Origin: Deltaproteobacteria bacterium
GTDB taxonomy: Bacteria > Desulfobacterota > DSM-4660 > Desulfatiglandales > HGW-15
NCBI GenBank assembly: GCA_016930835.1
Contig: JAFGGA010000047.1
Coordinates: 10,256 to 74,255, forward strand
Reading direction: 5' to 3'
DNA: 64,000 nt
Positions within the stretch are counted from its first letter, which is position 1, and every line of letters begins with the position of its first letter. Under the pieces are notes generated by a model. The model was not told where the DNA came from, did no database searches, and was given only the letters and a program-made list of their open reading frames with translations. A program made the position numbers and the translations under genes. Below, piece by piece: positions 46,891 to 64,000 of this stretch.

Positions 46891-48264
46891 TCAGTTTTTT
46901 TCCCTCTTATCAAGCCTTTTCATAAACTCCCATAACGGTCCTTTGATGCCGAACCGGCGTAATGTCCGTTGGCCCCGCTCGGTCATATTAATATTCAGCC
47001 CGGGGAAGATCCAAGTGGGATTTTGTTTGGAGTACCCTTCGATAAAAGAAAGAATCTCATTCTGAATGGCGCGTGAGATATAAAAAACGGGGTCCAAAAA
47101 ATCCTCATTCGGATCAATCATCCCTTCATTCAAAGCGATCTCAGCCAACCTTGTATGCGGAAAGATGCGAGTGCCGATCATCACGATGGCCGTTGTCGGC
47201 AACATGCCTTGAACGGTATCCAGGGTCTGCTGGGCGGTGGCCATGGTCTCGCCAGGCCCCCCAAGCAGAAGAGAATGACAAAAGGCCATCCCCGATTCCC
47301 GGCAGATCTTGGAAGCATGTTGAAGATCTCGAATTGTAAAATTTTTCCCCATATTGACGAGCATGGCATCATGGGCCGAGTCCGTCCCGAATTCCACGCT
47401 CGTACAACCGGACTTCAACATAAGGTCCAACAGGTTCGGCGTGACGAACCGGGGATTGGCATAACAGCTCCATTTTATCGTTAACCGGCGTTGAATGATC
47501 TCCCGGCATACGCCTTGCGCATGATCGATAGGGTAATTAAATGTGCTATCCACTATAAAGAGGGTATCGACGCCGTATCCCAATAACCGTTCAATCTCAT
47601 CGCAAACCCGGGTCGGATCGCGCAGCCTCATTTGGTTGCCTTCGATAATAGGATACGTGCAATAGATGCATTTGAATGGGCACCCCCTCTTGGTCTGGAT
47701 GTTCCCCATGCCGCCTTTTGTCAAGTATAGCCGGTTGTCAAACCCTGATCGATCCGGAAGCGGTATGGCGTCCAGGTCTTTTGCCATTCCATTTTCGCTA
47801 TGGAAGATTTTGCAGGGCGGTCCCTTATTGGCGCCGTCTCCCGCCTGAAGACGTTTTAACAACTCAATAAACGCAAATTCCCCTTCCCCGACAATACCGT
47901 AGTCGGCCTCCAGATAATCCATGATCTGATCCGGCAATAAGGCTAAACCGCTTCCCCCCAAGACGACGGGGGTAGAACACATTCGCTTGATGGTTTTGAC
48001 GACCTTTTGATAAAATGGCAGATACGAAATGGAATTGGGGTAACTGACGTTATCTACATTTCTCAAAGACAGACCAATGACATCCGGTTTGAATGCGTTA
48101 ATGGCGGATTCAATGGCTGACTCATAATCTGCAACAAAGCATAGATCCAGGATGTGACATGGGATGTTATTTTCTCTTAGTGCTGCTGCGAGATAGGCCA
48201 GTCCCAGGGGGAAGACAGGGTCGGGAAGGGTCTCAATGTTGGGGGAGATCAGTAAAACGTTCAT
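46891..48264 (-). CDS. Cobalamin-binding radical SAM enzyme (lipid biosynthesis/ladderane-cluster-type)
   Basis: PVFPLGLAYLAAAL, VIGLSLRNVDN, VVLGGSG (B12-binding); QTKRGCPFKCIYC; FIVDSTFN, EFGTDS. Confidence 0.88.
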   Translation of the reverse strand: MNVLLISPNIETLPDPVFPLGLAYLAAALRENNIPCHILDLCFVADYESAIESAINAFKPDVIGLSLRNVDNVSYPNSISYLPFYQKVVKTIKRMCSTPVVLGGSGLALLPDQIMDYLEADYGIVGEGEFAFIELLKRLQAGDGANKGPPCKIFHSENGMAKDLDAIPLPDRSGFDNRLYLTKGGMGNIQTKRGCPFKCIYCTYPIIEGNQMRLRDPTRVCDEIERLLGYGVDTLFIVDSTFNYPIDHAQGVCREIIQRRLTIKWSCYANPRFVTPNLLDLMLKSGCTSVEFGTDSAHDAMLVNMGKNFTIRDLQHASKICRESGMAFCHSLLLGGPGETMATAQQTLDTVQGMLPTTAIVMIGTRIFPHTRLAEIALNEGMIDPNEDFLDPVFYISRAIQNEILSFIEGYSKQNPTWIFPGLNINMTERGQRTLRRFGIKGPLWEFMKRLDKREKN

Positions 48265-48299
48265 AACGATAATTTATGGATAGGCCATTGTTATTAAAG

Positions 48300-48420
48300 G
48301 TCTCAGAATAGTATTCACGGTTCGTCGTGCTGAAAAGCCATTGGATTCCGGCCTTCGCCTGTGTGCTTGCGGACACGCACGGTCAGGCCGGAATGACGGT
48401 GGTGTGGAAAATTATGAGAC
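48300..48420. mobile_element. 121-bp MITE-like element with nested 30-nt hairpin
   Basis: GTCTCAGAAT...ATTATGAGAC termini; body matches 22470-22559 plus the insert at 48360-48389. Confidence 0.78.
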
Positions 48421-48464
48421 CGTTGATTTATCCATCTGGCCTATCTGAATTTAGTAATTTTAGA

Positions 48465-48552
48465 AAGGCACAAGGCTCAAAGCACAAGGCGCAGGGGATA
48501 AATCCTGCGAATTATTGGACCCTTTGCACCTTGTGCCCTGTGCCTTGAGTCC
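48465..48552. repeat. Opposed heptamer tandem arrays forming an imperfect inverted repeat
   Basis: aaggcac-aaggctc-aaagcac-aaggcgc, spacer, then the reverse complement of aaggcac-agggcac-aaggtgc. Confidence 0.75.
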
Positions 48553-48606
48553 ATTGAAAAATATTCCATAAGGTTTGAGTGCGCCATAATCCAAATCTTT
48601 TAAAAG

Positions 48607-49827
48607 CTAGGCTTTGGAGAAAATCATGCTCGCGCTTCCGCCACCGAAGGTACTCGTGGTCATCAATGTGGATCGGATATCTTGGGCGGGAGGGATATGC
48701 CATTCGAGAGCAGTATCCCCTTCACCCACTAATGTATCCAGGTTTACAACCGGTAGTGGCTCCTGGCGGTAGAGACTCAGCAGAATAGCCGCGGCCCGGA
48801 TGATGCCGGCCCCTCCGAAATCTCCCATCAAATACTTCAGGGGCGTAACCCGGATCTTGTTTTGTTTTTGTGTGAATACCTTTTTTACTTGATGATGTTC
48901 CATCCTGTCCAGTTCACCGGAAAGATTGGCGGATAAATCAATCTGGTCGATTTCGGTCGGGCCGATTCCAGACCGATCCAAGACCGTTACCATGGCTCTT
49001 CGCATCTGCTCGCCATCAATCTCATAGTGGCCGATAGACGCGCTTCCACCTGAAATGATCCCTGATCGAAGCAACCCGTAGATCTTCGCACCGCGTTCAA
49101 TGGCGAACGATTTTCGCTCCATGACCAGGATCCCGGCTCCCTCTCCCAGGACCAATCCGCCTCCACGTTTCGGGAGGATGGGTTGGCCCTCTCCGGATTG
49201 CAGGGTATTGAGTGAACCCACGTCGCTATAACATGAATGAAGCATCTCAGAGATCTCTTCGGCGCCTCCCACCAAAGCGACATCAACGATGTCATTGAGC
49301 AGCAAGGTTTTGGCATAAAGGATGGCGTTTTCCGCTGAAAGTTCATTCTGGCAAAAAGTGGTGTTGGGTCCTAAGATTCGGTGGAAGATCGCAATATGGC
49401 TGGCCGGTGCATTGGGCACGGTTTCCGGGAATAAAAGGGGTTGAGCCCCTCTTGGACCGTCTCTTAACAGGCTAATATAAAAATCCTCAACCCGGGAGCT
49501 GGCACCATAGGCGGTCCCCATAATGACGGCTACACGTTCACGATCTATTCCGTCCAGTATCAGTCCGCTGTCTTGGATGGCCTCGATGCCGGCAGCTACG
49601 GCCATCCTGGAGATTCGGCTCAATCGGCGATAGACATTGGGCTTCATGTATTGACCCGGTTGAAAGTCCTCCACCAGACCGGCGATATTGCATGGGAATG
49701 AATGCGTATCAAACGTTGTGATTCGTTTTAGCCCGCTCTTCGCGTTTCGACAGCTTTCCCAAAAGCTTTCCCGACCTGTTCCTAACGGGCTAATAATTCC
49801 CATACCTGTGATTGCGATATCGTTCAT
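48607..49827 (-). CDS. Chain-length-factor-like, catalytically inactive beta-ketoacyl synthase
   Basis: KAS fold (AITGMGIISPLG, LGEGAGILVME, TFGGG) but Cys/His/His appear as E (CQNELS), S (DLSAN) and D (MGDFG); ATG 49827. Confidence 0.85.
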   Translation of the reverse strand: MNDIAITGMGIISPLGTGRESFWESCRNAKSGLKRITTFDTHSFPCNIAGLVEDFQPGQYMKPNVYRRLSRISRMAVAAGIEAIQDSGLILDGIDRERVAVIMGTAYGASSRVEDFYISLLRDGPRGAQPLLFPETVPNAPASHIAIFHRILGPNTTFCQNELSAENAILYAKTLLLNDIVDVALVGGAEEISEMLHSCYSDVGSLNTLQSGEGQPILPKRGGGLVLGEGAGILVMERKSFAIERGAKIYGLLRSGIISGGSASIGHYEIDGEQMRRAMVTVLDRSGIGPTEIDQIDLSANLSGELDRMEHHQVKKVFTQKQNKIRVTPLKYLMGDFGGAGIIRAAAILLSLYRQEPLPVVNLDTLVGEGDTALEWHIPPAQDIRSTLMTTSTFGGGSASMIFSKA

Positions 49828-49845
49828 TAAACATCGTTTAAATTG

Positions 49846-49928
49846 AAAGTTCATGGTTCGAGGTTCATGGTCTTATGGAAACGTGTTATCCTTTGCACCG
49901 TGAACCGTATGCCTTATACCGTACACCT
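49846..49928. repeat. Opposed heptamer tandem arrays between KS and CLF
   Basis: aaagttc-atggttc-gaggttc-atggtct, spacer, then the reverse complement of acggtat-aaggcat-acggttc-acggtgc. Confidence 0.7.
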
Positions 49929-49974
49929 AATACATGACACATTCTGATTCCATATCGGCGATCCAAGTCATCCA

Positions 49975-51204
49975 CTAGTCCGCCTTGCCAAGCACCAATG
50001 TCGTATTGTTGCCCCCGAAGGCAAAAGAATTACTCAGGGCAACGGCCAGTTTCTGTCTCCGGTACTGATTCGGCACGTAATCCAGGTCGCATTCCGGGTC
50101 AAAGGTATCCAGATGGATCGTGGGCGGTACAAACTGTTCGTGAATCGCCAAAACCGTGGCAGCGGCCTCGATAGCGCCCGCCGCCCCAAGACAATGTCCC
50201 ACCATTGATTTGGTTGAGCTGATGGCCAGCAGCTTGGCTCCTGTTTCTCCAAAAACCTTTTTAATGGCCAGGGTCTCGGTCTTATCATTCACCGGTGTGG
50301 CGGTGCCGTGGGCGTTAATATAGTCTACTTCATTCACATCAAGCCTTGCGATGTCCAGAGCCTTTTTCATTACACGCGTCATGCCATCGGCGTTGGGGTC
50401 CGGCGAGGTCATATGAAAGGCATCGGCATTGACGGCATATCCAAGGACCTCCGCATAGATTTTTGCCTGCCGGCTTCGGGCGAGGCTGTAATTTTCCAGG
50501 ATAAGGATAGCCGCCCCTTCACCCAATGAAAGCCCGCCCCGGTTTTGATCAAAGGGACGGCAGTATTCCGGGTCCACCAGCCTCAGGGAATGAAATCCTG
50601 AAAAGGTCAGTTCTGAAAGGGCTTCGCTGCCTCCGGTCACAACCACATCCTGTTCGCCGGATCGGATCAGATCAAATCCATATCCAATGGATGTACCGCT
50701 GGAAGAGCATGCCGTTGAAATGGTCGCCCGGTATCCATAAAATCCGTATTGACTCGCGATTTGATCGGTCAGGGTGCAGGGGGCGGATGCCAGGACTTGT
50801 GAAGGTTTTCGTGCATGCCTGCCTGCCCATTGGGACCGGCGATATTTTTCCCAAGAAAGCATGCCGCCCGCACCGCCTCCCAGGATCACCCCGACCCGGT
50901 TCCTGTCAAGGGTATTTAATCTCAGCCCTGAATTTCTGAAGGCCTCTTTGGCCGCCGTAAGTCCCAGAAGATCGCAACGGGACATACGTTTGGTTCGCCC
51001 GGATTCAAAACCTTCTTTAAGATCCGTTTTTTTCACCTGAGCGGCAGTGTGGCAAGAAAAACCGGTGGTATCAAATACGGTGACCGGGCCGATCCCGCAG
51101 GCTCCCTGGATAAGCCCGTCCCTAAACGCCGTAACGGTTTCACCGATTGCGGTTATGACGCCTAGTCCTGTTACAACGACTCGAATTTTATGGCCTTTAT
51201 TCAT
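49975..51204 (-). CDS. Beta-ketoacyl-ACP synthase (FabF/KS-alpha-like), active
   Basis: STACSSS (Cys), INAHGTAT (His), KSMVGHCLGAAG (His), SNSFAFGGNN; ATG 51204 overlaps the GT2 stop (ATGA). Confidence 0.95.
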   Translation of the reverse strand: MNKGHKIRVVVTGLGVITAIGETVTAFRDGLIQGACGIGPVTVFDTTGFSCHTAAQVKKTDLKEGFESGRTKRMSRCDLLGLTAAKEAFRNSGLRLNTLDRNRVGVILGGGAGGMLSWEKYRRSQWAGRHARKPSQVLASAPCTLTDQIASQYGFYGYRATISTACSSSGTSIGYGFDLIRSGEQDVVVTGGSEALSELTFSGFHSLRLVDPEYCRPFDQNRGGLSLGEGAAILILENYSLARSRQAKIYAEVLGYAVNADAFHMTSPDPNADGMTRVMKKALDIARLDVNEVDYINAHGTATPVNDKTETLAIKKVFGETGAKLLAISSTKSMVGHCLGAAGAIEAAATVLAIHEQFVPPTIHLDTFDPECDLDYVPNQYRRQKLAVALSNSFAFGGNNTTLVLGKAD

Positions 51205-51896
51205 CGGTCCTTCCAAAACAGGTTCATCAAAAAAATGATGCTGATACGAAAGGTATCTTTAATGGGGCGATAGTATGACACATGTCTGGAGTCTGAGAAA
51301 TAAATCGCCTGAATGGGTACAAAACCGATCCGGTACCCTCTTTTCCCCGCCCTTAATAATATATCGGCCTCCGCCTCAAAACCCATATTTAAGATGCGTA
51401 TGGACTTGATAACCTGCCGATCGTAGAGTCTGAACCCGCATTGTGAATCTTCTATGGGTTGACCAATCAACCATGAGAACAGCGTTACCCCTACTTTATT
51501 GGGACCATAGCGGATACGGGGTATCGCATCTTTGGCCTGCATCCGGTTTCCGATAACGATTTTTGCTTGGTGCCGTATGTAGTAATCAACGAACCTGGGT
51601 ATTTCGTTCGGGTCATGTTGCAGATCGGCATCCAACGTGATAATGGCATCCAAATTATTATTGAGAGCATATTGGAATGCGACACGAAGCGTATTCCCTT
51701 TCCCTTTATTGCTGGATATGCTGATGACCTCGGCCCCGGCATTTTTGGCGATTATGGCGGTTTGATCCGTTGAACCATCATCCACCACAATCACGTGGGA
51801 GATATACCGCTTGGCCTTTTCAACCACCGTTGACACGGTTGATTCATTATTAAAGGCCGGTATCACAACATATATTTTTTTGTCGGAGGGAAGCAT
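51201..51896 (-). CDS. Glycosyltransferase family 2
   Basis: VVIPAFNN, VVDDGSTD, NKGKG, LDADLQHDP, DSQCGFRLY, EAEADIL. Confidence 0.93.
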   Translation of the reverse strand: MLPSDKKIYVVIPAFNNESTVSTVVEKAKRYISHVIVVDDGSTDQTAIIAKNAGAEVISISSNKGKGNTLRVAFQYALNNNLDAIITLDADLQHDPNEIPRFVDYYIRHQAKIVIGNRMQAKDAIPRIRYGPNKVGVTLFSWLIGQPIEDSQCGFRLYDRQVIKSIRILNMGFEAEADILLRAGKRGYRIGFVPIQAIYFSDSRHVSYYRPIKDTFRISIIFLMNLFWKDR

Positions 51897-51963
51897 GAAA
51901 GATTCAGGTTTAAGGAAATATAAAAGTCCGATGTTTTAGGTTCGGGGTATCTATACGGGCCTC

Positions 51964-52389
51964 TCATTCCTCCCCGCAAAAGGCGACCAACCTTGTAATC
52001 CGTTTTTCCAACTCCCCTTGAATCCGATAGATCATTTTTTTTTCGGTTGTTATCAAGACCTGTGTGGATTCCCCATGGGCCAAAAGGGTCCGGTCTGCTT
52101 TACGGATGACCTCGAATCTGAAGATGAGGGCAGCGATTTCGGGTTTGACGGCCGTGGTTCGGATAACGATCTCATCACCGCTTTCCGCGGGATGCTTGTA
52201 TTCGCATTGGATCCGGATGATGGGGGCGATATAGCCCAATGCGACCAACTGTTTGGGCAGTAGATCAAAACGACGTAACAAGGCCATCCTGCCGGCCTCA
52301 AACCACGCTATATAGTGCCCATGCCAGGCCATGCCCCATTCGTCCACTTCATTAAACCGGACGGTTTCTTCTTTTTCTACCCAATGCAT
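51964..52389 (-). CDS. Acyl-CoA/ACP thioesterase (4HBT hot-dog fold, ApeK-like)
   Basis: VRFNEVDEWGMAWHGHYIAWFEAGR, CEYKHPA. Confidence 0.9.
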   Translation of the reverse strand: MHWVEKEETVRFNEVDEWGMAWHGHYIAWFEAGRMALLRRFDLLPKQLVALGYIAPIIRIQCEYKHPAESGDEIVIRTTAVKPEIAALIFRFEVIRKADRTLLAHGESTQVLITTEKKMIYRIQGELEKRITRLVAFCGEE

Positions 52390-52394
52390 GTATA

Positions 52395-52673
52395 TTAATC
52401 ACTATATTCTTCCTGCACAAACCGTGCAAGGGCGTTAATGGAGGCAAATGCGCGTTTTCCCACATCCTCATCTTCGATAATGATCCGGAATATCTTTTCT
52501 ATCGCCACCACCAGTTCCAGGGCATCGATGGAGTCCAGGCCCAATCCGTCCCGAAACAGTGGCGCATCATTGTCAATTTCCTCCGGTGTGATCTCCTCCA
52601 GGTTGAGGGTCTCGATGATCATCTTTTTAAGATACCCTTGCAATGCTTCCAGATCTTCAACTATGTCCTTCAA
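52395..52673 (-). CDS. Acyl carrier protein (aryl-polyene-type)
   Basis: APLFRDGLGLDSIDALEL (phosphopantetheine Ser). Confidence 0.95.
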   Translation of the reverse strand: MKDIVEDLEALQGYLKKMIIETLNLEEITPEEIDNDAPLFRDGLGLDSIDALELVVAIEKIFRIIIEDEDVGKRAFASINALARFVQEEYSD

Positions 52674-52848
52674 AATTCACCTCGTGCATGTTTATTTTTT
52701 CGGGTCAAACGTATTATTATATCGTTTGGAAAACAACCAGTATTGACCTGAAGGTCATCCATTTAGGCCTCCAGCGCCCAGTTTCCAAGTCGGTATTGAA
52801 AGGGTTTCAAAGGACTGAAGGCCGACCGCTGATCGCCGATAGCTAGTG

Positions 52849-53589
52849 TCAAACCAAACCCCCGTCTACAGCCAGTACCTGCCCCGTTATATAGGCAGCC
52901 CTATCGGAGGCCAGAAAGAGGACTGCGTGGGCTATGTCTTCCGGGTTACCGAATCGCCCCATGGGTATCATATTTAAGAAATCCTTTTTGGTCTCAGGCG
53001 CCAGGGTCTCCGTCATGGGGGTGTTGATCACGCCCGGGCAGACGGCATTTACGGTAATGCCCAATCGGGCGGTCTCTTTGGACAAGGATTTGGTAAACGA
53101 GATGATGCCTCCCTTTGATGCCGAATAATTTGTCTGACCGGCCCTCCCGGTCACGGCACTGGGTGATGCCATATTGATGATGCGACCATAGCGTCGACCG
53201 ATCATGGACTTGATCACGGCCTTGGAACAAAGGTATCCTCCCTTTAGATTTGTATCCAGGACCTTGTCCCAATCCGTCTCATCCATAAATATGAGCATCT
53301 TATCTTTGATAATGCCTGCATTATTGACCAGGATATCCACAAATCCCCATTGTTCCAGGACATGAGAAACCATACCCTCCACCTGTGCCCGATCCGTAAT
53401 ATCCGCCTTAAATATCATGTGCTTGTCGGTCAAGGCCTTTATTTGATGTTTAGTTGCCGAGGCCGCCTCTTCGTCCGTATGGTAATTGATACATACCCAG
53501 GCGCCTTCTCGAGCGAATGCAAAAGCTATGGCCTTGCCAAGTCCCCTGGTAGCACCGGTGATGAGTATTCTTTTTTCCGAGAATTCCAT
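52849..53589 (-). CDS. fabG: 3-oxoacyl-ACP reductase (FabG-like SDR)
   Basis: TGATRGLG, VNNAGI, GQTNYSASKGG (YxxxK), NAVCPG, YITGQVLAVDGG. Confidence 0.92.
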   Translation of the reverse strand: MEFSEKRILITGATRGLGKAIAFAFAREGAWVCINYHTDEEAASATKHQIKALTDKHMIFKADITDRAQVEGMVSHVLEQWGFVDILVNNAGIIKDKMLIFMDETDWDKVLDTNLKGGYLCSKAVIKSMIGRRYGRIINMASPSAVTGRAGQTNYSASKGGIISFTKSLSKETARLGITVNAVCPGVINTPMTETLAPETKKDFLNMIPMGRFGNPEDIAHAVLFLASDRAAYITGQVLAVDGGLV

Positions 53590-53739
53590 AAGGTCGTTCT
53601 TTGCTTGGTCTTTATTATATTAAAGCATTATCGAATGTGTTTCCTCTAGAGATAAAAAGCTGGTATTTTAAAAAAAAACTGTTTATCAAAGGATAGCTGA
53701 ATCTGCAAGATTAAATTGGATTGTCGGTTAAATCAGGAT

Positions 53740-54918
53740 ATGAACAACAGGGTATTCATTACAGATGGCCATTGGCGAAAAACATTGGCGGCTGTTCGCG
53801 GTCTGGGACAGGAAGGTGTCCGGGTCACGGTGGGTGAGACCACCCGGCTGGCAACGGCGATATTTAGCAGATATTGCCGTGAATCGGTGGCCTATCCATC
53901 TCCGGTTCATCATCCTTCGGATTTTTTAGACCATCTTCGCAAGGCACTCACCAAAAAGCCCTATCAGATGCTCCTGCCGATGGAGGATGAAACCGTCAGC
54001 CTTTTATCGCGACATTTGAATGAATTTTCACGTCTAACCTATCTCCCCATTGTGCCTTTTGAGAAATGGAATATCGCCCATCGCAAAGACCATATCCTTA
54101 GACTGGCTGAAAGGCTCGGTATCCCCATACCCAAGACATGGTATGTTCAAGATCTCGGTCAAATCAACATGTTGAAGGATAGGATCCCCTATCCAGCGGT
54201 CATCAAGCCTGTTACGGGGTCTGGTGCCGTGGGAATCCGGTATCCAAAGAATCCCGTTGAATTTATAAGAGATTATCAATCCGTTCATATGCGGTTCCCT
54301 TTTCCTCTGGTCCAGGAACGCATCCCTTCCAAAGGGACAGGGTATGGGGCCTCTTTTCTATTTAACGAGGCCGGAGAGGTCAAGGCCTCTTTTATGCACA
54401 AAAGGCTGAGGGAGTATCCGCCGACGGGAGGTGCCAGCACCTTGAGAGAAAGCGTCAGGCGAGATGATATCCGGGATATGGGACGAGCCCTCTTAAAGGC
54501 CCTGGATTGGTATGGTGTGGCCATGGTGGAATTTAAACTCGATCCACGGGACAATATCCCGAAGCTCATGGAGGTCAATCCTCGATTTTGGGGGTCGTTG
54601 TCCCTGGCCATTTCGGCAGGTGTTAACTTCCCTTATCTGTTATACCGCATGTCAAAGGGTAATGATTTTCAACCTGTTGAGCAATATTCATTGGGAAAGC
54701 GGTGCCGGTGGTTGTTACCGGGGGATATTCTTCATTATATTCATAACCCGCACAGGAAGAATCTCTCGCCATCTTTTTTTCGATTCTGGGATCGTGATAC
54801 AACCTATGATATCCTTTCATTATATGATCCACTTCCTGTCCTGGGGAGGATCATGACACCTTTAACATTTTTTTATGACCACGATATGAAGAAACGTTTA
54901 ATAAAGCGGAAGAAATGA
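53740..54918 (+). CDS. ATP-grasp carboxylate-amine ligase-like protein
   Basis: IPIPKT, YPAVIKP..GSG, LVQERIP, GVAMVEFKLD, LMEVNPRFWGS; ATG 53740 after AGGA. Confidence 0.88.
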   Translation: MNNRVFITDGHWRKTLAAVRGLGQEGVRVTVGETTRLATAIFSRYCRESVAYPSPVHHPSDFLDHLRKALTKKPYQMLLPMEDETVSLLSRHLNEFSRLTYLPIVPFEKWNIAHRKDHILRLAERLGIPIPKTWYVQDLGQINMLKDRIPYPAVIKPVTGSGAVGIRYPKNPVEFIRDYQSVHMRFPFPLVQERIPSKGTGYGASFLFNEAGEVKASFMHKRLREYPPTGGASTLRESVRRDDIRDMGRALLKALDWYGVAMVEFKLDPRDNIPKLMEVNPRFWGSLSLAISAGVNFPYLLYRMSKGNDFQPVEQYSLGKRCRWLLPGDILHYIHNPHRKNLSPSFFRFWDRDTTYDILSLYDPLPVLGRIMTPLTFFYDHDMKKRLIKRKK

Positions 54919-55745: not shown

Positions 55746-55771
55746 TATCCATTTGGGATAATTCAATATAT

Positions 55772-56317: not shown

Positions 56318-57722
56318 TGGCATATCCCAAACCATGGAGTTCAAGAGGATGATATCAAAAATCAAACAAAACGTCCTGGTATATACCCTAAATCTATTAT
56401 TTTCTTTTTTGGCCTGGATAAAGAGTGAAAGGGTTTTTCGATGGGTCTATTCTTGGATCGCCTTCTTGGCTGAAAGACTAGCCAAGAAAGACTATTATAT
56501 TGAACGGATCAGATGGATCAAAGGGCTGTTTGACAGCCATCATCCGAGCATGGAGGCCGTTAAAAAAATCCTGCGCGGCACCAATCCTCACCATCGAAAG
56601 ACCATTATCAAGGCCTTTATTATTAATCAGCTTCTCGTGGGTACCAATAAGAGGAAGCAGTTTGAGGACCGGAAAGACGGATTTTATCCGCCCGGTTTTT
56701 TTGTGATCAGCCCCAGCATGAAGTGTAATCTGCGCTGTTACGGATGTTATGCGGGCAGTTACAATCATGACGCCGAATTGACCTTTGAGGAGATAGACAG
56801 CGTGCTGAATCAGGCCAAAGAGATGGGGATTCATTTTTGCGTGGTATCCGGGGGAGAGCCCCTATATCATCCGAGGATCTTTGATATTTTTGAAAAACAC
56901 AATGATGTGATCTTCCACATGTACACCAACGGGTCTTTGATCAATGAGAAGACCGGTCAGCGACTGGCCGAGGTCGGTAATGTGATACCGGCCATCAGTA
57001 TTGAAGGATATGAAAAGGAGACAGACGAGCGGAGGGGTCCGGGACATTTCAGGCGCGTCATGAAGGCCATGGATCTCTTAAAAGAGGCCAAGGTCCTTTT
57101 CGGTTTTTCAGCCACGTTGACCCGACATAATTGCGATCTTTTAAACAGCGATGAATTCATTGATTTTATGCTTGAAAAAGGATGCATTCTGGGTTGGTTT
57201 TTCATGTATGTTCCCATTGGCCGGGAGCCCAACCTGGAGCTGATGATGACGCCTGAGCAAAGAGGTCGTCAATTTGAGAGACTGACTCAATTGAGGGCCA
57301 CCAAATCCATCCTGTTGGCGGATTTCTGGAATGACGGCCCGGTGGTGGGGGGATGCATATCCGGGGGGCGAAAATATTTTCATGTCAATGCCAACGGAGA
57401 TATTGAGCCATGTGTGTTTTGCCACTTCGCGACACATAATATCCGGACCTCATCCTTGCAGGATGCGCTAAGGGCGCCACTTCTCAGTTCCATTCGATGT
57501 CAATTGCCCTCATATGAAAATCTTTTGCGACCTTGCATCATCATTGATAAACCGGAGATCAGCAGAACGGTGATCACTGAGAACAATGCCTATTTCACCC
57601 ATGAAGGGGCCGAGATCATATATGAGCAATTGACCCATGAAATGGATGAATATTCCAAGAATTACGGCATGATCGCGGACAAACTCTGGAGCAAGTATTT
57701 TCAGAAAGAAAAATCGGCTTAA
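56301..57722 (+). CDS. Radical SAM enzyme with SPASM/Twitch-type C-terminus (start probably 56334 or 56349)
   Basis: CNLRCYGC, SGGEPL, YTNG, ISIEG, GCISGGRKYFHVNANGDIEPCVF..RPC. Confidence 0.9.
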   Translation: MLRTRDGISQTMEFKRMISKIKQNVLVYTLNLLFSFLAWIKSERVFRWVYSWIAFLAERLAKKDYYIERIRWIKGLFDSHHPSMEAVKKILRGTNPHHRKTIIKAFIINQLLVGTNKRKQFEDRKDGFYPPGFFVISPSMKCNLRCYGCYAGSYNHDAELTFEEIDSVLNQAKEMGIHFCVVSGGEPLYHPRIFDIFEKHNDVIFHMYTNGSLINEKTGQRLAEVGNVIPAISIEGYEKETDERRGPGHFRRVMKAMDLLKEAKVLFGFSATLTRHNCDLLNSDEFIDFMLEKGCILGWFFMYVPIGREPNLELMMTPEQRGRQFERLTQLRATKSILLADFWNDGPVVGGCISGGRKYFHVNANGDIEPCVFCHFATHNIRTSSLQDALRAPLLSSIRCQLPSYENLLRPCIIIDKPEISRTVITENNAYFTHEGAEIIYEQLTHEMDEYSKNYGMIADKLWSKYFQKEKSA

Positions 57723-57737
57723 CGGAAACCATTCAAG

Positions 57738-60290
57738 GTGCTATCTCTCATACACCGGATTATTATCCGGTTTTATCAATCCATACTGGTTATCACCGCT
57801 TTATTAACACTTGTCGCCGTTGTGCTTATCACCCAATTGCGATTGGACCTGAACCTTTTTTCCCTCCTTCCGGCGGAAGATCCCGGCACAAGATCTTTTT
57901 TTGAGGTCACGGAAAAGATCGGGGTTCAATCCCTCCTGATTTCGCTTGTTCAAGTCCCTCAGGATATGGAGCAGGAGAAAGCCCAGGCGTTCGTAGACAT
58001 CTTCGCGAAAAACCTCACCCAAAGTCCCTTGATCAGGGAAGTCGAATACAAGATCGATCCCGAAAAGCAGATCGCTTTAACACTCTCCCTTCTACGATAT
58101 CTTCCTTTGTTTCTGGATAGCCAAGGGATGCAAAGGTTGGGTGACCGATTATCTGATGAGCAGATCATAAACCAAGTCCAAGAAAACAAACGCCTTCTCA
58201 TGACGCCATTCGGCATCGCCGCAAAACAGCTTGTTTTTTCAGACCCTCTGGGTGTTCGAGAACTGTTCACGCCGGATCTGTCCGGCTCTCCCGAAAGGCA
58301 GACCATACGGTCTTTTCAGGGGTATTATCGCACAAAAGACCAAAGGACTTATCTTCTGTTTGTGAAGCCCGTTAACCCGCCCCAAGATCTCGTATTCAGC
58401 CGGAACTTGATGGATGAAGTCTCCCGTATCGAAAAGCAGACCCTGACGAAGGCATCCAATGATCTTGATCAACGAATTGGAGCCATAACCTTATCCTATA
58501 CCGGTGGATACCCCATTGTGTTAAAAGACGAGGCCATTACCAAGAAGGATATCCAGATCACCCTGGTTACATCCTTCTTCGGGGTCATGATCCTTTTCGG
58601 TCTTTCCTTTCGCACCTTCAAGATCCTCATTTATGCGGGTATCCCTTTGATCATCGGCTTACTGTGGACCCTGGGGTTCGCGCAGATCGTTTTCCATGAG
58701 TTGAACATCTTAACCTGCATATTCTCATGTGTCTTGATCGGGTTAGGAATCGATTTCGCCATCCATATGGTGAACCGGTTTTATCATCAAGACCTGGCGG
58801 ATCAAGAGGTGTCTTATCGACTTGAACGAACCTTTCAGGACACTGGAATGGGGATTATCATCGGTGCCATCACCACGGCCGCGGCATTTTATTCCATTGC
58901 CGTCTCTGATTTCAGGGGTTTTAGAGAGCTGGGTATCATGACCGGTACAGGTATCTTGATCTGCCTGGTGACCATGATCTTTATCCTGCCCTCGCTCCTT
59001 GTCTTTTTCTCAAAGAAAAAGGTCGCTCGGAATCATTTTGTCATGGCCGGATTTGGGTTGAGATCCGTTCTGGGAGCCTTATGGCGAGTACCTAAGGTGA
59101 TCCTTATATTGATCACGATCATCTTTATCGGATTGACCTTTTCAGGTCGCAACATCCGCTTTGACGAGAACCTGAGAAATTTCAGACCCGTGGATGAAAA
59201 GATATTTGATCAACAGGACACTGTCACGGACTGGCTCGGCGGTTCCACGGAAGAAATCCTCTTGGTCGCCCATGGCGTATCCGAGACCGAGACCCTGGAA
59301 ACCACTTACAGGATCTATACGGCATTGGACGAACTCAAAAGATCGGCCGACCTGATTGTAGGAATCAAGTCCGTCAGCCGATTCATCCCGTCCCCAAGCC
59401 AGCAGGAAAAGAGCCTGACTTTTATTCGGAGCCATCCGGATCTTTTTGACATGGAACGGATAACACGGTCTTTTCATGAGGCCATGGAGAAAAACGGCTT
59501 TGAGCCATCCGACCGATACGATGATTACTTTAAAGGACTGGCCCAGGCCCTTTCAACCAAAGATATCCTTCTGCCTTCCTCCATTCCAGAAAATGAACTC
59601 ACTCGATTCATCAAGATGTTTTTTTATGAACAGGTAGGCATGTACAAGACCGTAACCTATATCTCGCCGGCAAAGGATCTCTGGCTGCGAAAGGACATCC
59701 GTGCATTGAAAAATTTGATCTCGGATAAGATGGCTGAAAAAGGGATCAGGCAGGACCAGTATCACCTCACGGGAGCGAATTTTCTGACGGGGGAGTTGAA
59801 GGCATTGATCATCACCAATATGAAGTCATCCATGACACTGGCCGTCTTGAGCATCGTCGTGATCCTTTTCATTTTTTATCGAAGTGCCGGCTTTTTCATC
59901 CTATCCATCACACCTTTGATCATCGGGATTGGTTCCCTTTTAGGTATTATGGCCCTTTTTCACCTGGACTTTAATTTTATCAACCTTATTGTTCTGCCCA
60001 TGATTGTGGGGATAGGCATTGACGACGGGGTTCACCTCACCAATACATTTCAACGCTCCACCAAAGAAGATCTTATGGATAACCTGAGCCGGACCGGTCG
60101 TGCCATTGTCTTAACCTCCCTTACGACCCTGGTGGGATTCGGTTCCATTATCCTGTCACACTATCCAGGATTGAAGAGCATCGGTTACGTGGCAGTCATC
60201 GGTATCAGCGCCTGCATGTTTGCATCCATTTTGGTGCTTCCGCCGCTTTTTCAGATCATGAGGCCAAGGACAAGTAATCCTAATCCTTAA
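57738..60290 (+). CDS. MMPL/RND-family lipid exporter
   Basis: Two halves each with a periplasmic loop and TM bundle; GLGIDFAIH and GIGIDDGVH, GFRELG, TTLVGFGS. Confidence 0.92.
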   Translation: MLSLIHRIIIRFYQSILVITALLTLVAVVLITQLRLDLNLFSLLPAEDPGTRSFFEVTEKIGVQSLLISLVQVPQDMEQEKAQAFVDIFAKNLTQSPLIREVEYKIDPEKQIALTLSLLRYLPLFLDSQGMQRLGDRLSDEQIINQVQENKRLLMTPFGIAAKQLVFSDPLGVRELFTPDLSGSPERQTIRSFQGYYRTKDQRTYLLFVKPVNPPQDLVFSRNLMDEVSRIEKQTLTKASNDLDQRIGAITLSYTGGYPIVLKDEAITKKDIQITLVTSFFGVMILFGLSFRTFKILIYAGIPLIIGLLWTLGFAQIVFHELNILTCIFSCVLIGLGIDFAIHMVNRFYHQDLADQEVSYRLERTFQDTGMGIIIGAITTAAAFYSIAVSDFRGFRELGIMTGTGILICLVTMIFILPSLLVFFSKKKVARNHFVMAGFGLRSVLGALWRVPKVILILITIIFIGLTFSGRNIRFDENLRNFRPVDEKIFDQQDTVTDWLGGSTEEILLVAHGVSETETLETTYRIYTALDELKRSADLIVGIKSVSRFIPSPSQQEKSLTFIRSHPDLFDMERITRSFHEAMEKNGFEPSDRYDDYFKGLAQALSTKDILLPSSIPENELTRFIKMFFYEQVGMYKTVTYISPAKDLWLRKDIRALKNLISDKMAEKGIRQDQYHLTGANFLTGELKALIITNMKSSMTLAVLSIVVILFIFYRSAGFFILSITPLIIGIGSLLGIMALFHLDFNFINLIVLPMIVGIGIDDGVHLTNTFQRSTKEDLMDNLSRTGRAIVLTSLTTLVGFGSIILSHYPGLKSIGYVAVIGISACMFASILVLPPLFQIMRPRTSNPNP

Positions 60291-61122
60291 AACCGTATGT
60301 TGACTTGCTCACACCGGGCAATATGATATTCCCTCCCGATAAAGAGAATAAAGTTTCTCCAAGCCGACCGAAAAAGATGGAGGCCCATCGTCCCAGTCTG
60401 TCATGGGGCAGGGTATGACCGCCGATACGGGTTTGAGGATCGGCAAATCCGCAATGCGCCAGTAGTTTCTTGATGGTGGAAGGATTAAAATCAAAAAGGT
60501 GATAGGGGGTATGGTAAAGGTCCAGGTACCGGCTGAACGGTCCGATAAATCGAATGATGGGCGTGGAGTGCGGCCATCTAAGGAAGATGAGGCCGCCTGG
60601 CTTGAGGATGCGGTGAACCTCCTTCATTAGCCCAATGGGGTCTGATACATGTTCGATGACATAAAAGAGGGTGATCACATCAAATCGGTTTTCCGGTAAC
60701 CCAAGTTCTTCAAGGGGTCGCGAGTGGATCTCCATCCCCCATTTTTGTACGGCATATGCTCTGCCAATGGGGGATATCTCGATCCCCTCCACCTGCCATC
60801 CCCGGCGCATCATTTCTCTCAAAAAAAAGCCATACCCGCAACCCACGTCCAGAATACGGCCCGATCGGGTCCGTGCCTGGGACTCGATCATGCCCGCGGA
60901 GGTTTGGATGACCGGTTTCATCATCGCGCTCCACTGATCAATCTGATCGGGTCGAACCGGAAGGTAATGGTCATAACTCTTTATCAGTTCTCGGGGGGTG
61001 GGTTTGGGATAAAGGGTGACGAGACCACAGCCCCGGCAGCGGAGATACCGCCATGGGCCTCTTTGATGAATGAGGCGCCAGCGGGATGTATTACAGATAA
61101 TGCAAGGATCAATATTGTGCAT
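60280..61122 (-). CDS. Class I SAM-dependent methyltransferase with N-terminal Zn ribbon
   Basis: CIIC..RCRGC, ILDVGCGYG, FDVITLFYVIEH, LKPGG. Confidence 0.9.
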   Translation of the reverse strand: MHNIDPCIICNTSRWRLIHQRGPWRYLRCRGCGLVTLYPKPTPRELIKSYDHYLPVRPDQIDQWSAMMKPVIQTSAGMIESQARTRSGRILDVGCGYGFFLREMMRRGWQVEGIEISPIGRAYAVQKWGMEIHSRPLEELGLPENRFDVITLFYVIEHVSDPIGLMKEVHRILKPGGLIFLRWPHSTPIIRFIGPFSRYLDLYHTPYHLFDFNPSTIKKLLAHCGFADPQTRIGGHTLPHDRLGRWASIFFGRLGETLFSLSGGNIILPGVSKSTYGFKD

Positions 61123-61201
61123 GACGTAATGTGTTTAGGCTCTTTCGATCGGTTTGAAGTTGTTTGTCCCGTCTTGATAATCATTGATTAGACCATGCAA
61201 A

Positions 61202-61233
61202 AAGGCGCACGGCAAATGGCTCAGGGCGCAAGG
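61202..61233 (+). repeat. Heptamer tandem array
   Basis: aaggcgc-acggcaa-atggctc-agggcgc-aagg. Confidence 0.6.
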
Positions 61234-61277
61234 AGTATAAGAATCAACTACCAGCTTACCAATTTATGCTTTTCACC

Positions 61278-61841
61278 TCATTGTAAAGGCTTTTCCGCTT
61301 CTTCTTTCAGGTTATCCAGCACGGACTCCACGATCTCATCGTGTTTACGCCGGGCCTTCAGCAGCCAGGCAATCTTACGAAGGCTTTTGGGTTGGACCAC
61401 GATGGTATGGGTCACGCGGACGGCGTCCCCTTCTTCTTCAAACTCCCAGAGTTCGGTCCCTCCCGCAAAGAAACCGTCCAGGAAACGAAGCCTGATCTTT
61501 TGGGAATGGATTATTTCCTCCACCTGGGTGTTCCATTCCAGTTTAAATATATGGTTGATCTTTGTATGGACCTGGGTCCCCACCTGATAGGGTGGAGGTG
61601 TCTTGTGGGTAAAGATGGTGTGGTCCGGGCATAGGGTTTGAAAGGTCTTCTCCTGTGTAATGAACTCGAAGATTTGGTCCCTCTCAGCCCGAATGAGTCG
61701 TGTATGCTGATTGATTTCGCCCTCATATCCGGCATAATCCGGGGCCTTGACATGATATTTGGATGCGCACCCTTGCGTTATCCCCATGATCAATAAAAAT
61801 ATGAATATAGAATATCGTTTAATGAAAGGCCTCAAGAACAT
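61278..61841 (-). CDS. Lipoprotein with SRPBCC/START-like ligand-binding domain
   Basis: Lipobox TQGC; RDQIFEFI, YQVGTQV, GGTELWEFEEEGDAVRVTHTI. Confidence 0.75.
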   Translation of the reverse strand: MFLRPFIKRYSIFIFLLIMGITQGCASKYHVKAPDYAGYEGEINQHTRLIRAERDQIFEFITQEKTFQTLCPDHTIFTHKTPPPYQVGTQVHTKINHIFKLEWNTQVEEIIHSQKIRLRFLDGFFAGGTELWEFEEEGDAVRVTHTIVVQPKSLRKIAWLLKARRKHDEIVESVLDNLKEEAEKPLQ

Positions 61842-61979
61842 TCTATTTTTCCTCCAAATCTAGCTTGTTTCGGTGATCGGGTTATCATAGGATTCAGATA
61901 TATAGCATGAACGGTAATCAGGTGGCTCGACTATACACATCAAGACCAAACCATACAGTCTTTTTTCGGCGATGAAGGT

Positions 61980-62008
61980 TTGACATTTTTTCCCCCGGGT
62001 ACTAGATT
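61980..62008 (+). promoter_or_regulatory. sigma-70 promoter of the acyltransferase operon
   Basis: TTGACA-N17-TAGATT. Confidence 0.6.
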
Positions 62009-62067
62009 ACATATCCAATTTCGCGCTACCTTAAAATCGAATTTCCCATAAGTAAAGGGTTTTTCCT

Positions 62068-62817
62068 GTGAAGATCGTTTTTTATTGGGTCTTGTACCCA
62101 CTCATACGACCGGCCTATCTCCTTTTTTTGATTGTGAATACAGCCATCTTAGCCTTTATTATTGTTCTCATTTCACCTTTTGATCGGAAAGGGAACTTTA
62201 TTCACTACATCGGCAAGTTCTGGTCCTTATTGAATGTCTATATCTCCGGCACCCGCATGTATATGAGGGGAAGAGAGCGAATAGAAAAGGGGCGGAACTA
62301 TATCATCATGTCCAACCATCAGAGCCTTTTTGATGTATGGGCCCTTATCGGTCGGATACCGCTTCAACTCCGGTGGATCGTAAAGGCGAGTATCAGGAAA
62401 ATGCCCCTGTTTGGCCTTGCATTGGAACGTATGGGCCACATCTATGTGGACCCAAGGAGACTTAAGGATACATCCAGCGGGCTTAACACGGCCGTTCAAA
62501 AGATCCATAGAGGCTTTTCCGTTGTGATATTCCCTGAGGGGACACGGAGTATGGACGGAAGGCTCCAAAAATTTCACCGGGGAGGGGCCGCCATGGCCAT
62601 CCAATCAGGCGTGGCCATCCTCCCTGTGACCGTTAACGGCAGCCGCTTTGTACTCCCTAAGGGGACCTTGGGTTTGATGCCGGGTAAGATTGAGATCGTT
62701 ATCGGTGAGCCGATTGATCCGTCCCGGTTTACGGAAGACAAAAAAGACGACCTCATGCTAGAGGTCAAGGAAGCCATAGAGAAAAATCTTGATCTGGAGT
62801 TTGGAAGATTAACATAA
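62068..62817 (+). CDS. plsC: 1-acyl-sn-glycerol-3-phosphate acyltransferase (PlsC family)
   Basis: SNHQSLFD (HX4D), IFPEGTRS, AILPV. Confidence 0.9.
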   Translation: MKIVFYWVLYPLIRPAYLLFLIVNTAILAFIIVLISPFDRKGNFIHYIGKFWSLLNVYISGTRMYMRGRERIEKGRNYIIMSNHQSLFDVWALIGRIPLQLRWIVKASIRKMPLFGLALERMGHIYVDPRRLKDTSSGLNTAVQKIHRGFSVVIFPEGTRSMDGRLQKFHRGGAAMAIQSGVAILPVTVNGSRFVLPKGTLGLMPGKIEIVIGEPIDPSRFTEDKKDDLMLEVKEAIEKNLDLEFGRLT

Positions 62818-62821
62818 GCAA

Positions 62822-62940
62822 AAGGTTTACGGTTCATGGCATGCGGTACACAGTTAAAAATGATTCAATCGATTTATAAGGAGGATAGGCCCTTGAGCCT
62901 TAAATAATGACCTTGAACCCTGAACCTTAAACCTTGAACC
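62822..62940. repeat. Opposed heptamer tandem arrays between the two acyltransferases
   Basis: aaggttt-acggttc-atggcat-gcggtac, spacer, then ccttgag..ccttgaa-ccctgaa-ccttaaa-ccttgaa. Confidence 0.72.
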
Positions 62941-62951
62941 CTGTTTTTATC

Positions 62952-63839
62952 ATGCGCCGACATACACTGGACACACCAGTCTCATACTATACCATATTTT
63001 TGTTCACCCGATACATCCCTATTGGCCTATGCCATTTTTTGGGTAAGATCACGGCCCTTATCGTATATGCCTTCTCCCGTCGAGACCGCGCCGGCCTGGG
63101 GTATAATCTCTCTTTGGCCCTACAACGGCCCCCGGACGACCCATTCATCAGAAGAACGATTCGACGTATATTCATCAACTACGGCCGATACCTGGTGGAT
63201 TTTTTTTATCTTCCCCAGCTTTCCAGGGTAAAGGCCCGGCGCTTTTTTTCCCATCTTCAGAACAAAGAGATCCTTGACCAGGCCATATCGGAGGGAAAAG
63301 GGGTGATTATCCTTTCAGCCCACGTGGGCAACTGGGAGGTGAGTGGAAACATGGCCGAACACCCGATGGCCGTGGTGGCTATGGCCCATAATACCGATAA
63401 GACCGAAGGCCTCGTCAACCGACTTCGGAACAATCAAGGGGTTAGGCAATTTGTTATTGAAGATTCCCTGTTTTCAGGCATCGAGATCCTACATTATCTG
63501 CGGAATAACGGGATTGTGGCCATGATCGGGGATAAAGATTTTTGGGGCACGGGGAAGGTGATATCATTCTTTGGGAAAAAGGTGGTCTTCCCCGTGGGGC
63601 CGGTCGTATTGGCCATGACAACGGGTGCGGCCCTTCTACCGGCCTTTGTCCTGATGCAGCCTGATGGTCGATACTTCGGCATAGTGGAAAAGCCCATTGT
63701 TGTTCATCGAGAAGGTGACCGGGATCAGGCCATTGAAAAGAATCTAATGGAGATAACAGCCGTGTTTGAACGATACATCCGGCAGTATCCGGATCAGTGG
63801 TATTGTCCGGATCCCATTGCCCTGGAGACGGACTCATGA
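62952..63839 (+). CDS. LpxL/PatA-family (lipid A lauroyl-type) acyltransferase
   Basis: SAHVGNWE, AMIGDKD, FFGK..FPVGP..TGAALLP, YPDQWY; the track's TTG 62934 lies inside the repeat. Confidence 0.88.
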   Translation: MRRHTLDTPVSYYTIFLFTRYIPIGLCHFLGKITALIVYAFSRRDRAGLGYNLSLALQRPPDDPFIRRTIRRIFINYGRYLVDFFYLPQLSRVKARRFFSHLQNKEILDQAISEGKGVIILSAHVGNWEVSGNMAEHPMAVVAMAHNTDKTEGLVNRLRNNQGVRQFVIEDSLFSGIEILHYLRNNGIVAMIGDKDFWGTGKVISFFGKKVVFPVGPVVLAMTTGAALLPAFVLMQPDGRYFGIVEKPIVVHREGDRDQAIEKNLMEITAVFERYIRQYPDQWYCPDPIALETDS

Positions 63840-64000
63840 GACTATCACTCATTATTCCGAAATGGCCGATCGGAAGCCTATGGGGGCAGATTTTTTTCCG
63901 GTTTCCCTACCTCTCCGTGACCACATTGGCCGGTTTAACGAATGATGCTTGGGATGTCTCAATCATCGATGAGAATGTGGCGCCCCTGGATTTTTCTTCA
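63836..64000 (+). CDS. Cobalamin-binding radical SAM enzyme, N-terminal 55 aa only (runs off the right edge)
   Basis: MRLSLIIPKW..FPYLSVTTLAGLT..WDVSIIDENVAPLDFS is a typical B12-rSAM N-terminus; ATGA overlap with the acyltransferase. Confidence 0.7.
   Translation, partial: MRLSLIIPKWPIGSLWGQIFFRFPYLSVTTLAGLTNDAWDVSIIDENVAPLDFSS

Follow-up and report, generated by a model that had tools for sequence, protein, structure and literature searches.

Towards the end of a 64,000-nucleotide stretch of a Deltaproteobacteria bacterium genome (hereafter the window: positions 10256-74255 of contig C97, in an assembly of 4.70 Mb and 224 contigs) lies a gene cluster of the 'ladderane-type' family, whose mark is a B12-binding radical S-adenosylmethionine (SAM) enzyme of family TIGR04072 adjoining a FabF-like ketosynthase (KS) with a catalytically dead partner. 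On balance, we favour the reading that this intact cluster makes an outer membrane (OM) lipid built on a glycerophospho-hexosamine, similar to the aryl polyene (APE) lipid (APEL), bearing a non-aryl chain tailored by radical SAM enzymes. The sequence-only reading of the window, made before any database search, had likewise recognised a dedicated lipid cluster resembling a fatty acid or polyketide synthase (FAS/PKS), with APE-type genes for anchoring and export alongside B12 radical SAM genes, and in this it was right. Where it went too far was in calling the locus an undescribed system: TIGR04072 is a curated family, synteny of Kuenenia with clusters of Desulfotalea, Geobacter and Pelobacter was reported in 2009 (Rattray; PMC2649909), and antiSMASH 'ladderane' calls are on record in Desulfobacterota and other phyla (PMC9902471). 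The family is already known at the genomic level, and what we describe here is a new, compact member of it.

The window carries the features by which such clusters are recognised, namely the marker above its cut-off, a KS with a triad-less partner and an acyl carrier protein (ACP), and synteny with anammox bacteria. On TIGR04072, the NCBIfam model named in full 'lipid biosynthesis B12-binding/radical SAM protein (rSAM_ladder_B12)', the first of the radical SAM enzymes reaches 389.4 bits (389.1 in the genome-wide search), above the cut-off of 360; its anammox orthologue, 41% identical, reaches 428 bits. BzaD (208 bits) and the TsrM family (184 bits) rank next, TsrM 6wte is the closest solved structure, and no paper came up when the literature was searched for the name TIGR04072.

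The chain-building pair is equally distinctive, and its description from sequence alone as a KS with an inactive chain-length factor (CLF) was borne out at the catalytic triad (Table 1), where the window partner and eight orthologues all align Glu, Ser and Asp. In a tree of 88 KS-family proteins drawn from related loci, the window KS joins other cluster KSs in a clade (100% support) that excludes the housekeeping FabF of this genome, whilst the dead partners (19 of 19) form a single clade with 99% support; the branching of this second clade mirrors that of the first, as would be expected of co-evolving heterodimers. Among solved structures, the KS is closest to chain B of PDB 9s5h (353 bits, 42% identity). 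This chain has a 91%-identical match in a Brocadiaceae metagenome-assembled genome (MAG), where a second KS-like gene follows directly on the matching gene, and on these grounds we take chain B to be an anammox FabF2. The homologous anammox KS/dead-KS pair has been demonstrated to work as a functional KS/CLF heterodimer (bioRxiv 10.64898/2026.05.19.726425). At 41% identity to the genome's own FabF, compared with 33% to ApeR and 31% to ApeO, the cluster KS is, by sequence, FAS-like rather than APE-PKS-like. It is nevertheless not the FabF/FabB orthologue of this genome, so that assignment to the housekeeping type II FAS fails; the housekeeping FabF sits separately on contig C56 with a FabG gene alongside, and is the only other KS in the genome.

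The grouping of these genes exceeds chance, as approximately 19 of them stand in the same order in other genomes. A scan of one genome per species turned up 245 relatives, and we searched the 80 best loci and extended regions with all 22 window proteins (tblastn). Two Desulfobacterales MAGs (G002 and G004) preserve the full order g01-g19 at 53-75% identity, whole-unit synteny at the same identities extends over Desulfobacterales and Syntrophaceae MAGs, and a 775-kb metagenome contig holds the same core. Of 46 loci that are 12 kb or longer and have a radical SAM enzyme at least 31% identical, 38 carry a KS gene no more than 10 kb from it; of the eight with more distant enzymes, none does. The marker itself exceeds its cut-off in 8 of 41 related genomes, scattered across genera, so that we regard the cluster as accessory, and none of the 14 model control genomes searched has it.

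The kinship to the anammox candidate cluster that the sequence-only reading had proposed is borne out by a Brocadiaceae contig (G007:C23) whose genes follow the order published for Kuste3335-3352 (PMC4790861) and among which 14 window genes have counterparts, 24-54% identical and partly in the same order. These are the ATP-grasp ligase (49-54%), the family 2 glycosyltransferase (GT2; 44-45%), the second B12 radical SAM enzyme (44%), the deacetylase (43%, a Kuste3351-type gene), the DUF2846-like lipoprotein (42%), the TIGR04072 enzyme (41%), the ACP (39%), the KS (38%), the methyltransferase (MT; 37-38%, at the Kuste3338 position), the dead KS (30%), the LpxL-like protein (27%), the SPASM radical SAM enzyme (25%), the MMPL exporter (24-25%) and, by Pfam, the LolA-like protein. 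From this gene content, the window cluster is a minimal variant of the Kuste3335-3352 type. For the sequence-only reading, a characterised cluster that was almost fully syntenic and made a known product would have spoken against an undescribed system; this is only half the case, since much of the gene order is shared with the anammox cluster, which itself has no known product.

The anchoring and export genes lead to a different set of relatives. When the ape cluster proteins of E. coli CFT073 were compared directly with the window proteins (BLASTP), the ACP matched ApeE (46%), FabG matched ApeQ (39%), the thioesterase ApeK (40% over 62 residues), the PlsC-like enzyme ApeD (26%) and the MMPL exporter ApeM (21% over 778 residues); the KS and its dead partner both matched ApeR and ApeO, and for the partner the match was not to ApeC. 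ApeJ was matched in two halves, its N-terminal part by the GT2 (30%) and its C-terminal part by the LpxL-like protein (23%). Set against the APE core, the cluster has only one KS, one dead partner, one ACP, one ketoreductase and one MMPL protein, at 21-46% identity. For ApeI, ApeP, ApeH, ApeG, ApeN, ApeL, ApeB and ApeA there was no BLASTP match among the window proteins. Domain scans found no dehydratase or enoyl reductase among the cluster genes (FabA, FabZ and MaoC domains included) and no AMP-binding domain. Elsewhere in the genome, a search for a further locus with FabZ, a ligase or a second KS, as in loci a and b of D. psychrophila, found none: matches were limited to the FabF and FabG genes on C56, two FabZ-like genes (C131 and C193) and, as the only match to the anammox ligase, a weak one on C65 at 28% identity. 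Membership of the canonical APE clusters therefore fails on their defining features, as neither a dehydratase pair, nor a starter ligase, nor a second KS locus is present, and the doubt that the sequence-only reading had cast on a canonical APE was well placed.

Gene calls in the cluster rest on a listing of open reading frames (ORFs) with Pfam and NCBIfam scans, and the last 3.8 kb of the contig, which hold the rest of the second B12 radical SAM gene, a LolA-like gene and a gene for a lipoprotein of 381 amino acids (aa), were read as well. The cluster spans ~20.7 kb, from window position 46269 to window-equivalent position 66957, ~2.96 kb beyond the window end. The sequence-only reading had given it at least 17 kb, but set its start at 46891, 620 bp too late, thereby missing the DUF2846 lipoprotein gene; all the gene classes that it listed are present and intact, and a PF06695 membrane protein has to be added to them. 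The 19-20 genes, every one an open and intact ORF, lie in four transcription units of alternating orientation that are probably four operons (Table 1). Catalytic motifs are in place throughout: CxxxCxxC in all three radical SAM enzymes, two of them B12-binding as had been noticed from the letters, the ACP serine, HX4D and FPEGTR in the PlsC-like enzyme, HX4E in the LpxL-like enzyme and the His-His motif of the deacetylase. Promoter and terminator scans of positions 46000-64000 gave counts at the level of shuffled sequence (25 versus 25.2 and 22 versus 21.0, respectively), so that operon signals cannot be claimed, and an Rfam search of the whole window returned no match, cobalamin riboswitch included.

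Table 1. Transcription units and features of the cluster in window coordinates; genes beyond the window end are given in window-equivalent positions.
Feature	Position	Strand	Content, domains and motifs
Unit A	53589 down to 46269	-	FabG, ACP, 4HBT, GT2, KS, dead KS partner, B12 radical SAM, DUF2846 lipoprotein
FabG-type 3-oxoacyl-ACP reductase, first gene of the KS operon	52849-53589	-	TIGR01830, 310.6 bits (cut-off 297.75)
Dedicated ACP	52395-52673	-	LGLDS motif; NF006617, 75 bits (cut-off 70)
4HBT hot-dog thioesterase, ApeK-like	51964-52389	-	PF13279, PF03061
GT2, polyprenyl-/lipid-phosphate sugar synthase type	51201-51896	-	PF00535
Active FabF-like KS	49975-51216	-	Cys/His/His; TACSSS, HGTAT, GHCLG
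Catalytically dead, CLF-like KS partner	48607-49854	-	Glu/Ser/Asp at triad; both KS domains by Pfam
~140-bp interspersed repeat copy	48291-48430		In CLF-to-radical-SAM spacer (48265-48606)
First B12-binding radical SAM, TIGR04072 'rSAM_ladder_B12'	46891-48264	-	CPFKCIYC
DUF2846 lipoprotein, last gene of the KS operon	46269-46850	-	Lipobox ...CIGC; PF11008, 35.2 bits, above cut-off
Unit B	53740-60290	+	ATP-grasp ligase, DUF3473 deacetylase, PF06695 membrane protein, SPASM radical SAM, MMPL
ATP-grasp carboxylate-amine ligase, 392 aa	53740-54918	+	ATG at 53740; PF15632, PF02655
Polysaccharide-deacetylase-family enzyme with DUF3473	54915-55745	+	PF01522, PF11959; His-His metal motif THGYGH
Small polytopic membrane protein	55772-56317	+	PF06695, 53 bits (Pfam)
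SPASM radical SAM (partial SPASM, hydrophobic N-terminal extension)	56301-57722	+	PF04055, PF13186; CNLRCYGC
MMPL/RND lipid exporter, HpnN-like, HAE3	57738-60290	+	PF03176; HpnN 255 bits, under cut-off
Unit C	61841 down to 60280	-	SRPBCC-like lipoprotein, SAM methyltransferase
SRPBCC-like lipoprotein	61278-61841	-	Lipobox ITQGCAS
Class I SAM methyltransferase	60280-61122	-	Methyltransf_23, Methyltransf_11
Unit D	From 62068	+	PlsC-like, LpxL-like, second B12 radical SAM; off-window LolA-like, 381-aa lipoprotein
PlsC-type acyltransferase	62068-62817	+	PF01553; HQSLFD, FPEGTR
LpxL/HtrB-family acyltransferase	62934-63839	+	PF03279; HVGNWE
Second B12-binding radical SAM, 452 aa	63797 to 65155 (window-equivalent)	+	Full gene from contig C97
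LolA-like gene, off-window	65148-65852 (window-equivalent)	+	PF03548; LolA2_flexi 89 bits, under cut-off
381-aa lipoprotein, off-window	65812-66957 (window-equivalent)	+	Lipobox

How might such a cluster work? Homology underlies the chain building, lipid assembly and export proposed here, whereas the tailoring of the chain and the changes to the sugar amine are inferred. In the pathway that we propose, the KS and its CLF-like partner, the dedicated ACP and FabG would build an acyl chain from malonyl units; because the cluster is without a dehydratase and an enoyl reductase, any dehydration or enoyl reduction would be borrowed from the housekeeping type II FAS (FabZ, FabI), or else the chain would be short or hydroxylated. 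The TIGR04072 enzyme, the second B12 radical SAM enzyme, the SPASM radical SAM enzyme and the SAM methyltransferase could then tailor this chain. For the TIGR04072 enzyme, C-methylation is the most likely chemistry, as its nearest characterised relatives, BzaD and TsrM, are C-methyltransferases, although it may instead perform C-C cross-linking or cyclisation.

For the assembly of the lipid itself, APEL offers a template: ApeD acylates a lysoglycerophospholipid, ApeJ joins N-acetylgalactosamine (GalNAc) to the phosphate and then puts the ACP-bound chain on the sugar, and ApeM with ApeL carries the lipid to the OM (bioRxiv 10.1101/2020.12.19.423268; PMC8253772). By analogy, the PlsC-like enzyme would acylate a lysoglycerophospholipid, the GT2 (the N-half of ApeJ) would put an N-acetylhexosamine (HexNAc) on the phosphate, and the LpxL-like enzyme (the C-half) would move the special chain from the ACP onto the sugar. 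The head group is probably a HexNAc-1-phosphoglycerolipid as in APEL, since the GT2 is of the lipid-phosphate sugar-synthase type. Pathways in which a glycosyltransferase, a deacetylase and a ligase act in succession are a model for deacetylation followed by re-amidation; along the same lines, the window deacetylase may expose the sugar amine, and the ATP-grasp ligase may re-amidate it with an amino acid or with the acid released by the 4HBT thioesterase. Delivery to the OM would fall to the MMPL exporter, the LolA-like protein and the lipoproteins. Indeed, the DUF2846, SRPBCC-like and 381-aa proteins all carry lipoboxes and the LolA-like protein a signal peptide, and the lipoproteins thus point to an envelope destination, in keeping with the lipid that we propose.

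Several other readings of the same genes deserve consideration. The cluster could serve the remodelling of lipid A or lipopolysaccharide, with the LpxL-like enzyme adding a cluster-made secondary acyl chain to lipid A, and an ArnC-like GT2, an ArnD-like deacetylase and the small membrane protein supplying an aminosugar decoration. We consider this unlikely, but worth keeping in sight, considering that the LpxL family match (PF03279) is clear, that ArnC and PpgS are among the best NCBIfam matches of the GT2, that the deacetylase belongs to the Pfam family of ArnD and is followed by a small polytopic membrane protein, and that the authors of the APE work too weighed lipid A as an anchor (PMC8253772). 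However, domain scans of the cluster revealed no GT-C transferase resembling ArnT; APEL, the one relative with a solved structure, is anchored on glycerol-phosphate-GalNAc and not on lipid A; and the conserved PlsC-type enzyme, together with a GT2 and an LpxL-like protein that match both halves of ApeJ, speaks for the glycerophospholipid anchor. It is less probable still that the locus brings together, by chance, independent modules for accessory fatty acid synthesis, for sugar modification of the exopolysaccharide (PEP-CTERM) type and for lipid export. The deacetylase is indeed nearest to TIGR03006, a family of the XrtA system (257.7 bits, under the cut-off of 276.2), the four transcription units alternate, and both the GT2 and the SPASM radical SAM gene shift or drop out in relatives; yet in every close relative the ATP-grasp, deacetylase and PF06695 genes remain beside the FabG-ACP-KS operon in divergent orientation, and the ATP-grasp and deacetylase genes, at 43-54% identity, also co-occur with KS, CLF and radical SAM genes in the Brocadiaceae genome.

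Two further readings fare worse, and we give both very little credence. A canonical APE or flexirubin pigment cluster is suggested by eight Ape homologues and by scores on flexirubin models which remain below their thresholds (FlxB 265 bits versus 340; LolA2_flexi 89 bits versus 125), but the cluster is without ApeI/ApeP dehydratases, an ApeH/FlxY-type ligase, a second KS, ApeG or ApeN, the genome has no other KS cluster, and the KS stands nearer to FabF than to ApeO or ApeR. Ladderane lipids with their concatenated cyclobutanes, or the polyunsaturated chains, made anaerobically, that have been suggested as their precursors (Rattray 2009), are what homology and synteny with the Kuste3335-3352-type cluster, membership of TIGR04072 and a KS 42% identical to the anammox FabF2 would bring to mind. 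Against this, Desulfotalea psychrophila carries a similar cluster without having ladderanes (PMC2649909), current opinion places ladderane synthesis on Cluster I with its own FabZ and phytoene-desaturase-like enzyme, and without a dehydratase or desaturase the enzymes of the window cluster cannot make the polyene precursor. A bolder version of our own proposal would be that the ~14-gene core common to the window and the anammox clusters defines a new class of OM lipid in anaerobes: an N-deacetylated, re-amidated hexosamine-phosphoglycerolipid whose chain is made without a dedicated dehydratase or enoyl reductase and is cross-linked or carbocyclised, beyond methylation, by the three radical SAM enzymes. 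We hold this to be quite improbable; if it were true, the large anammox 'ladderane' cluster would not be ladderane machinery, and radical SAM carbocyclisation of fatty acyl chains would occur well outside the anammox bacteria.

The APEL-like OM lipid that we favour has points of its own to answer. The literature reports a product for no member of this cluster family, heterologous expression of the anammox genes yielded no new lipid (PMC4790861), and our functional assignments for the three radical SAM enzymes, the deacetylase and the ATP-grasp ligase are inferences. Gene content also differs among close relatives, where the SPASM radical SAM gene is missing from three, the GT2 gene has moved, and some have an extra gene for an alkaline-phosphatase-family protein, FabD or FabH, so that not every step of the model is universal. 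Lastly, in this very copy a repeat element parts the CLF and radical SAM genes. All of these weigh against the proposed product, or against its being made in the same way throughout the family.

This repeat is ~140 bp long, and looks like a MITE/REP-type element (miniature inverted-repeat transposable element or repetitive extragenic palindrome): more than 150 copies at 80-96% identity are spread over the contigs of the genome, many of them at contig ends, and another lies just past the cluster (C97 77260-77400). The spacer that it occupies, which also holds a separate GC-rich inverted repeat, measures 342 bp here as opposed to 16-30 bp in eight orthologous clusters. As for the gene content, the SPASM radical SAM gene is present in G002 and G006 (65-75%) and missing from G001, G003 and G004. 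A protein of ~568 aa of the alkaline-phosphatase family (type I phosphodiesterase/sulfatase superfamily) is encoded beside the MT/SRPBCC pair in two related loci (L088:8744-10447, minus strand; L087:14471-16180, plus strand), a TPR protein and a FabD-like malonyl transacylase follow the LolA-like gene in the cluster of a related MAG (L088:14264-15964), and FabH lies between the ATP-grasp and FabG genes in G004 (L014:4135-5124); none of these four genes occurs in the window cluster. Further away, KS and CLF form one fused protein of ~717-810 aa in a TIGR04072 subfamily that shares 31-39% identity with the window enzyme (L032, L033, L036, L038-L040, L047-L049, L053, L054, L056-L058, L062, L063, L070, L077, L080), and one fusion of 1022 aa has an LpxL-like N-terminal domain as well.

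The remaining tailoring enzymes are less readily placed than the TIGR04072 protein. Against PDB sequences, the SPASM radical SAM enzyme matched generic SPASM enzymes only (BlsE, SkfB, CteB-type and one other), and an Mss/Tes-like reading of it is unsupported, as no tetraether-synthase-like PDB sequence was matched. The second B12 radical SAM enzyme weakly resembles BchE, HpnR and PhpK, all far under the NCBIfam cut-offs, and is 70% identical in G002 and G004. The methyltransferase has an N-terminal zinc ribbon of four cysteines (7, 10, 29 and 32). Elsewhere in the genome, contig C195 (12814-13246, minus strand; L004) carries decayed pieces of the second B12 radical SAM gene (aa 1-47 at 72%, aa 85-114 at 83%), with a piece of the 381-aa lipoprotein gene (aa 105-171, 66%) directly behind them, all downstream of a gene for a metallo-beta-lactamase-fold protein and an ATP sulfurylase gene; judged by their sequence, these fragments are the relic of a second, degraded copy of the 3' end of the cluster.

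Amongst the sugar and envelope genes, the best NCBIfam matches of the GT2 are AglJ, PpgS and ArnC, each under its cut-off. The ATP-grasp ligase has a database copy of the same length, 392 aa, in a family of more than 4,400 members; its AlphaFold2 model (predicted local distance difference test score 79, predicted template modelling score 0.82) has ATP-grasp enzymes as its top fold matches, and the fold search of the PDB returned generic neighbours only (2pn1, biotin carboxylases, an L-amino-acid ligase and PylC), with no clue to the substrate. The position of the PF06695 gene is kept across orthologous clusters. What the sequence-only reading had called an SRPBCC lipoprotein does have the lipobox, but its matches to Polyketide_cyc and Polyketide_cyc2 are sub-threshold (E 0.004-0.02); it adjoins the MT gene in relatives too (39-55% identity), and is probably an SRPBCC/START-like lipid binder. 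The DUF2846 orthologue in G002 (61%) likewise follows the radical SAM gene. For the 381-aa lipoprotein, a GGSIG motif is suggestive of an alpha/beta hydrolase and the PDB match is to the uncharacterised 4z8z only; it was not found in the syntenic relatives, and is a tentative member of the cluster.

Directly upstream of the cluster stand two tandem PAS-REC-GGDEF diguanylate cyclases (window 41726-45894, plus strand), the first with an additional HisKA domain; as they are absent beside orthologous clusters, they are probably not part of it. Between them and the cluster, a 92-aa ORF (45946-46224, plus strand) matches only the C-terminal cytoplasmic domain of the FlhB/YscU family (PF01312, positions 262-335 of 335), with a paralogous stretch, 48% identical, at ~33738-33974 of the window. 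This ORF is unrelated to the cluster.

What, then, does a compact member add to a family already known? Genome-mining tools score these clusters as 'ladderane' in many anaerobic phyla, and here is a variant that retains the genes shared with anammox bacteria without dehydratase, desaturase or starter-ligase genes. The shared core is therefore probably not ladderane-specific: it is unlikely that the genes common to the window and the anammox bacteria are the ones that make ladderanes, which agrees with the shift of the field to Cluster I, and the core is better read as an APEL-like OM pathway in which radical SAM enzymes tailor the chain. For expression and lipidomics, this variant moreover provides a defined set of ~19 genes. 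Practical value is limited by an assembly in 224 fragments and by close relatives retrieved as MAGs or metagenome contigs, and the main use of this copy is a comparative one.

To conclude, the cluster can be set beside four systems. In the Arn pathway, ArnC is a GT2, ArnD a deformylase and ArnE/F a flippase, and the mycobacterial PpgS route stands alongside as a comparison; the window resembles both in combining a sugar-synthase-type GT2, a PF01522 de-N-acylase and a small membrane protein in one locus, whereas its matches lie far under the family cut-offs and ArnA/B and ArnT are missing, which makes this an analogy of logic only. Anammox Cluster I (Kuste3603-3608), composed of amxACP, amxFabZ, amxFabF2/amxFabFmut, a phytoene-desaturase-like gene and a B12 radical SAM gene, shares with the window the principle of a KS/dead-KS heterodimer with a B12 radical SAM enzyme alongside. 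Its partners, however, have Val or Thr with Asn/Glu/Cys where the window partner has Glu/Ser/Asp, domain scans of the window cluster found no dehydratase and no amine-oxidase/desaturase domain, and the large anchoring and export module of the window is not part of Cluster I. The Kuste3335-3352-type cluster (Rattray 2009; Javidpour 2016) has, in addition to the shared genes, a second KS, a FlxY-like AMP ligase, FabZ, a second MT and a VTT/DedA protein, whilst the FabG, 4HBT, PlsC and PF06695 genes of the window have no counterpart found on the Brocadiaceae contig. With the APEL cluster apeA-R of E. coli CFT073 and Xenorhabdus doucetiae, finally, the window shares the same logic of anchoring and export, carried by homologous proteins; a polyene chromophore is not expected here, and in its place the window cluster adds three radical SAM enzymes, an ATP-grasp ligase and a deacetylase.

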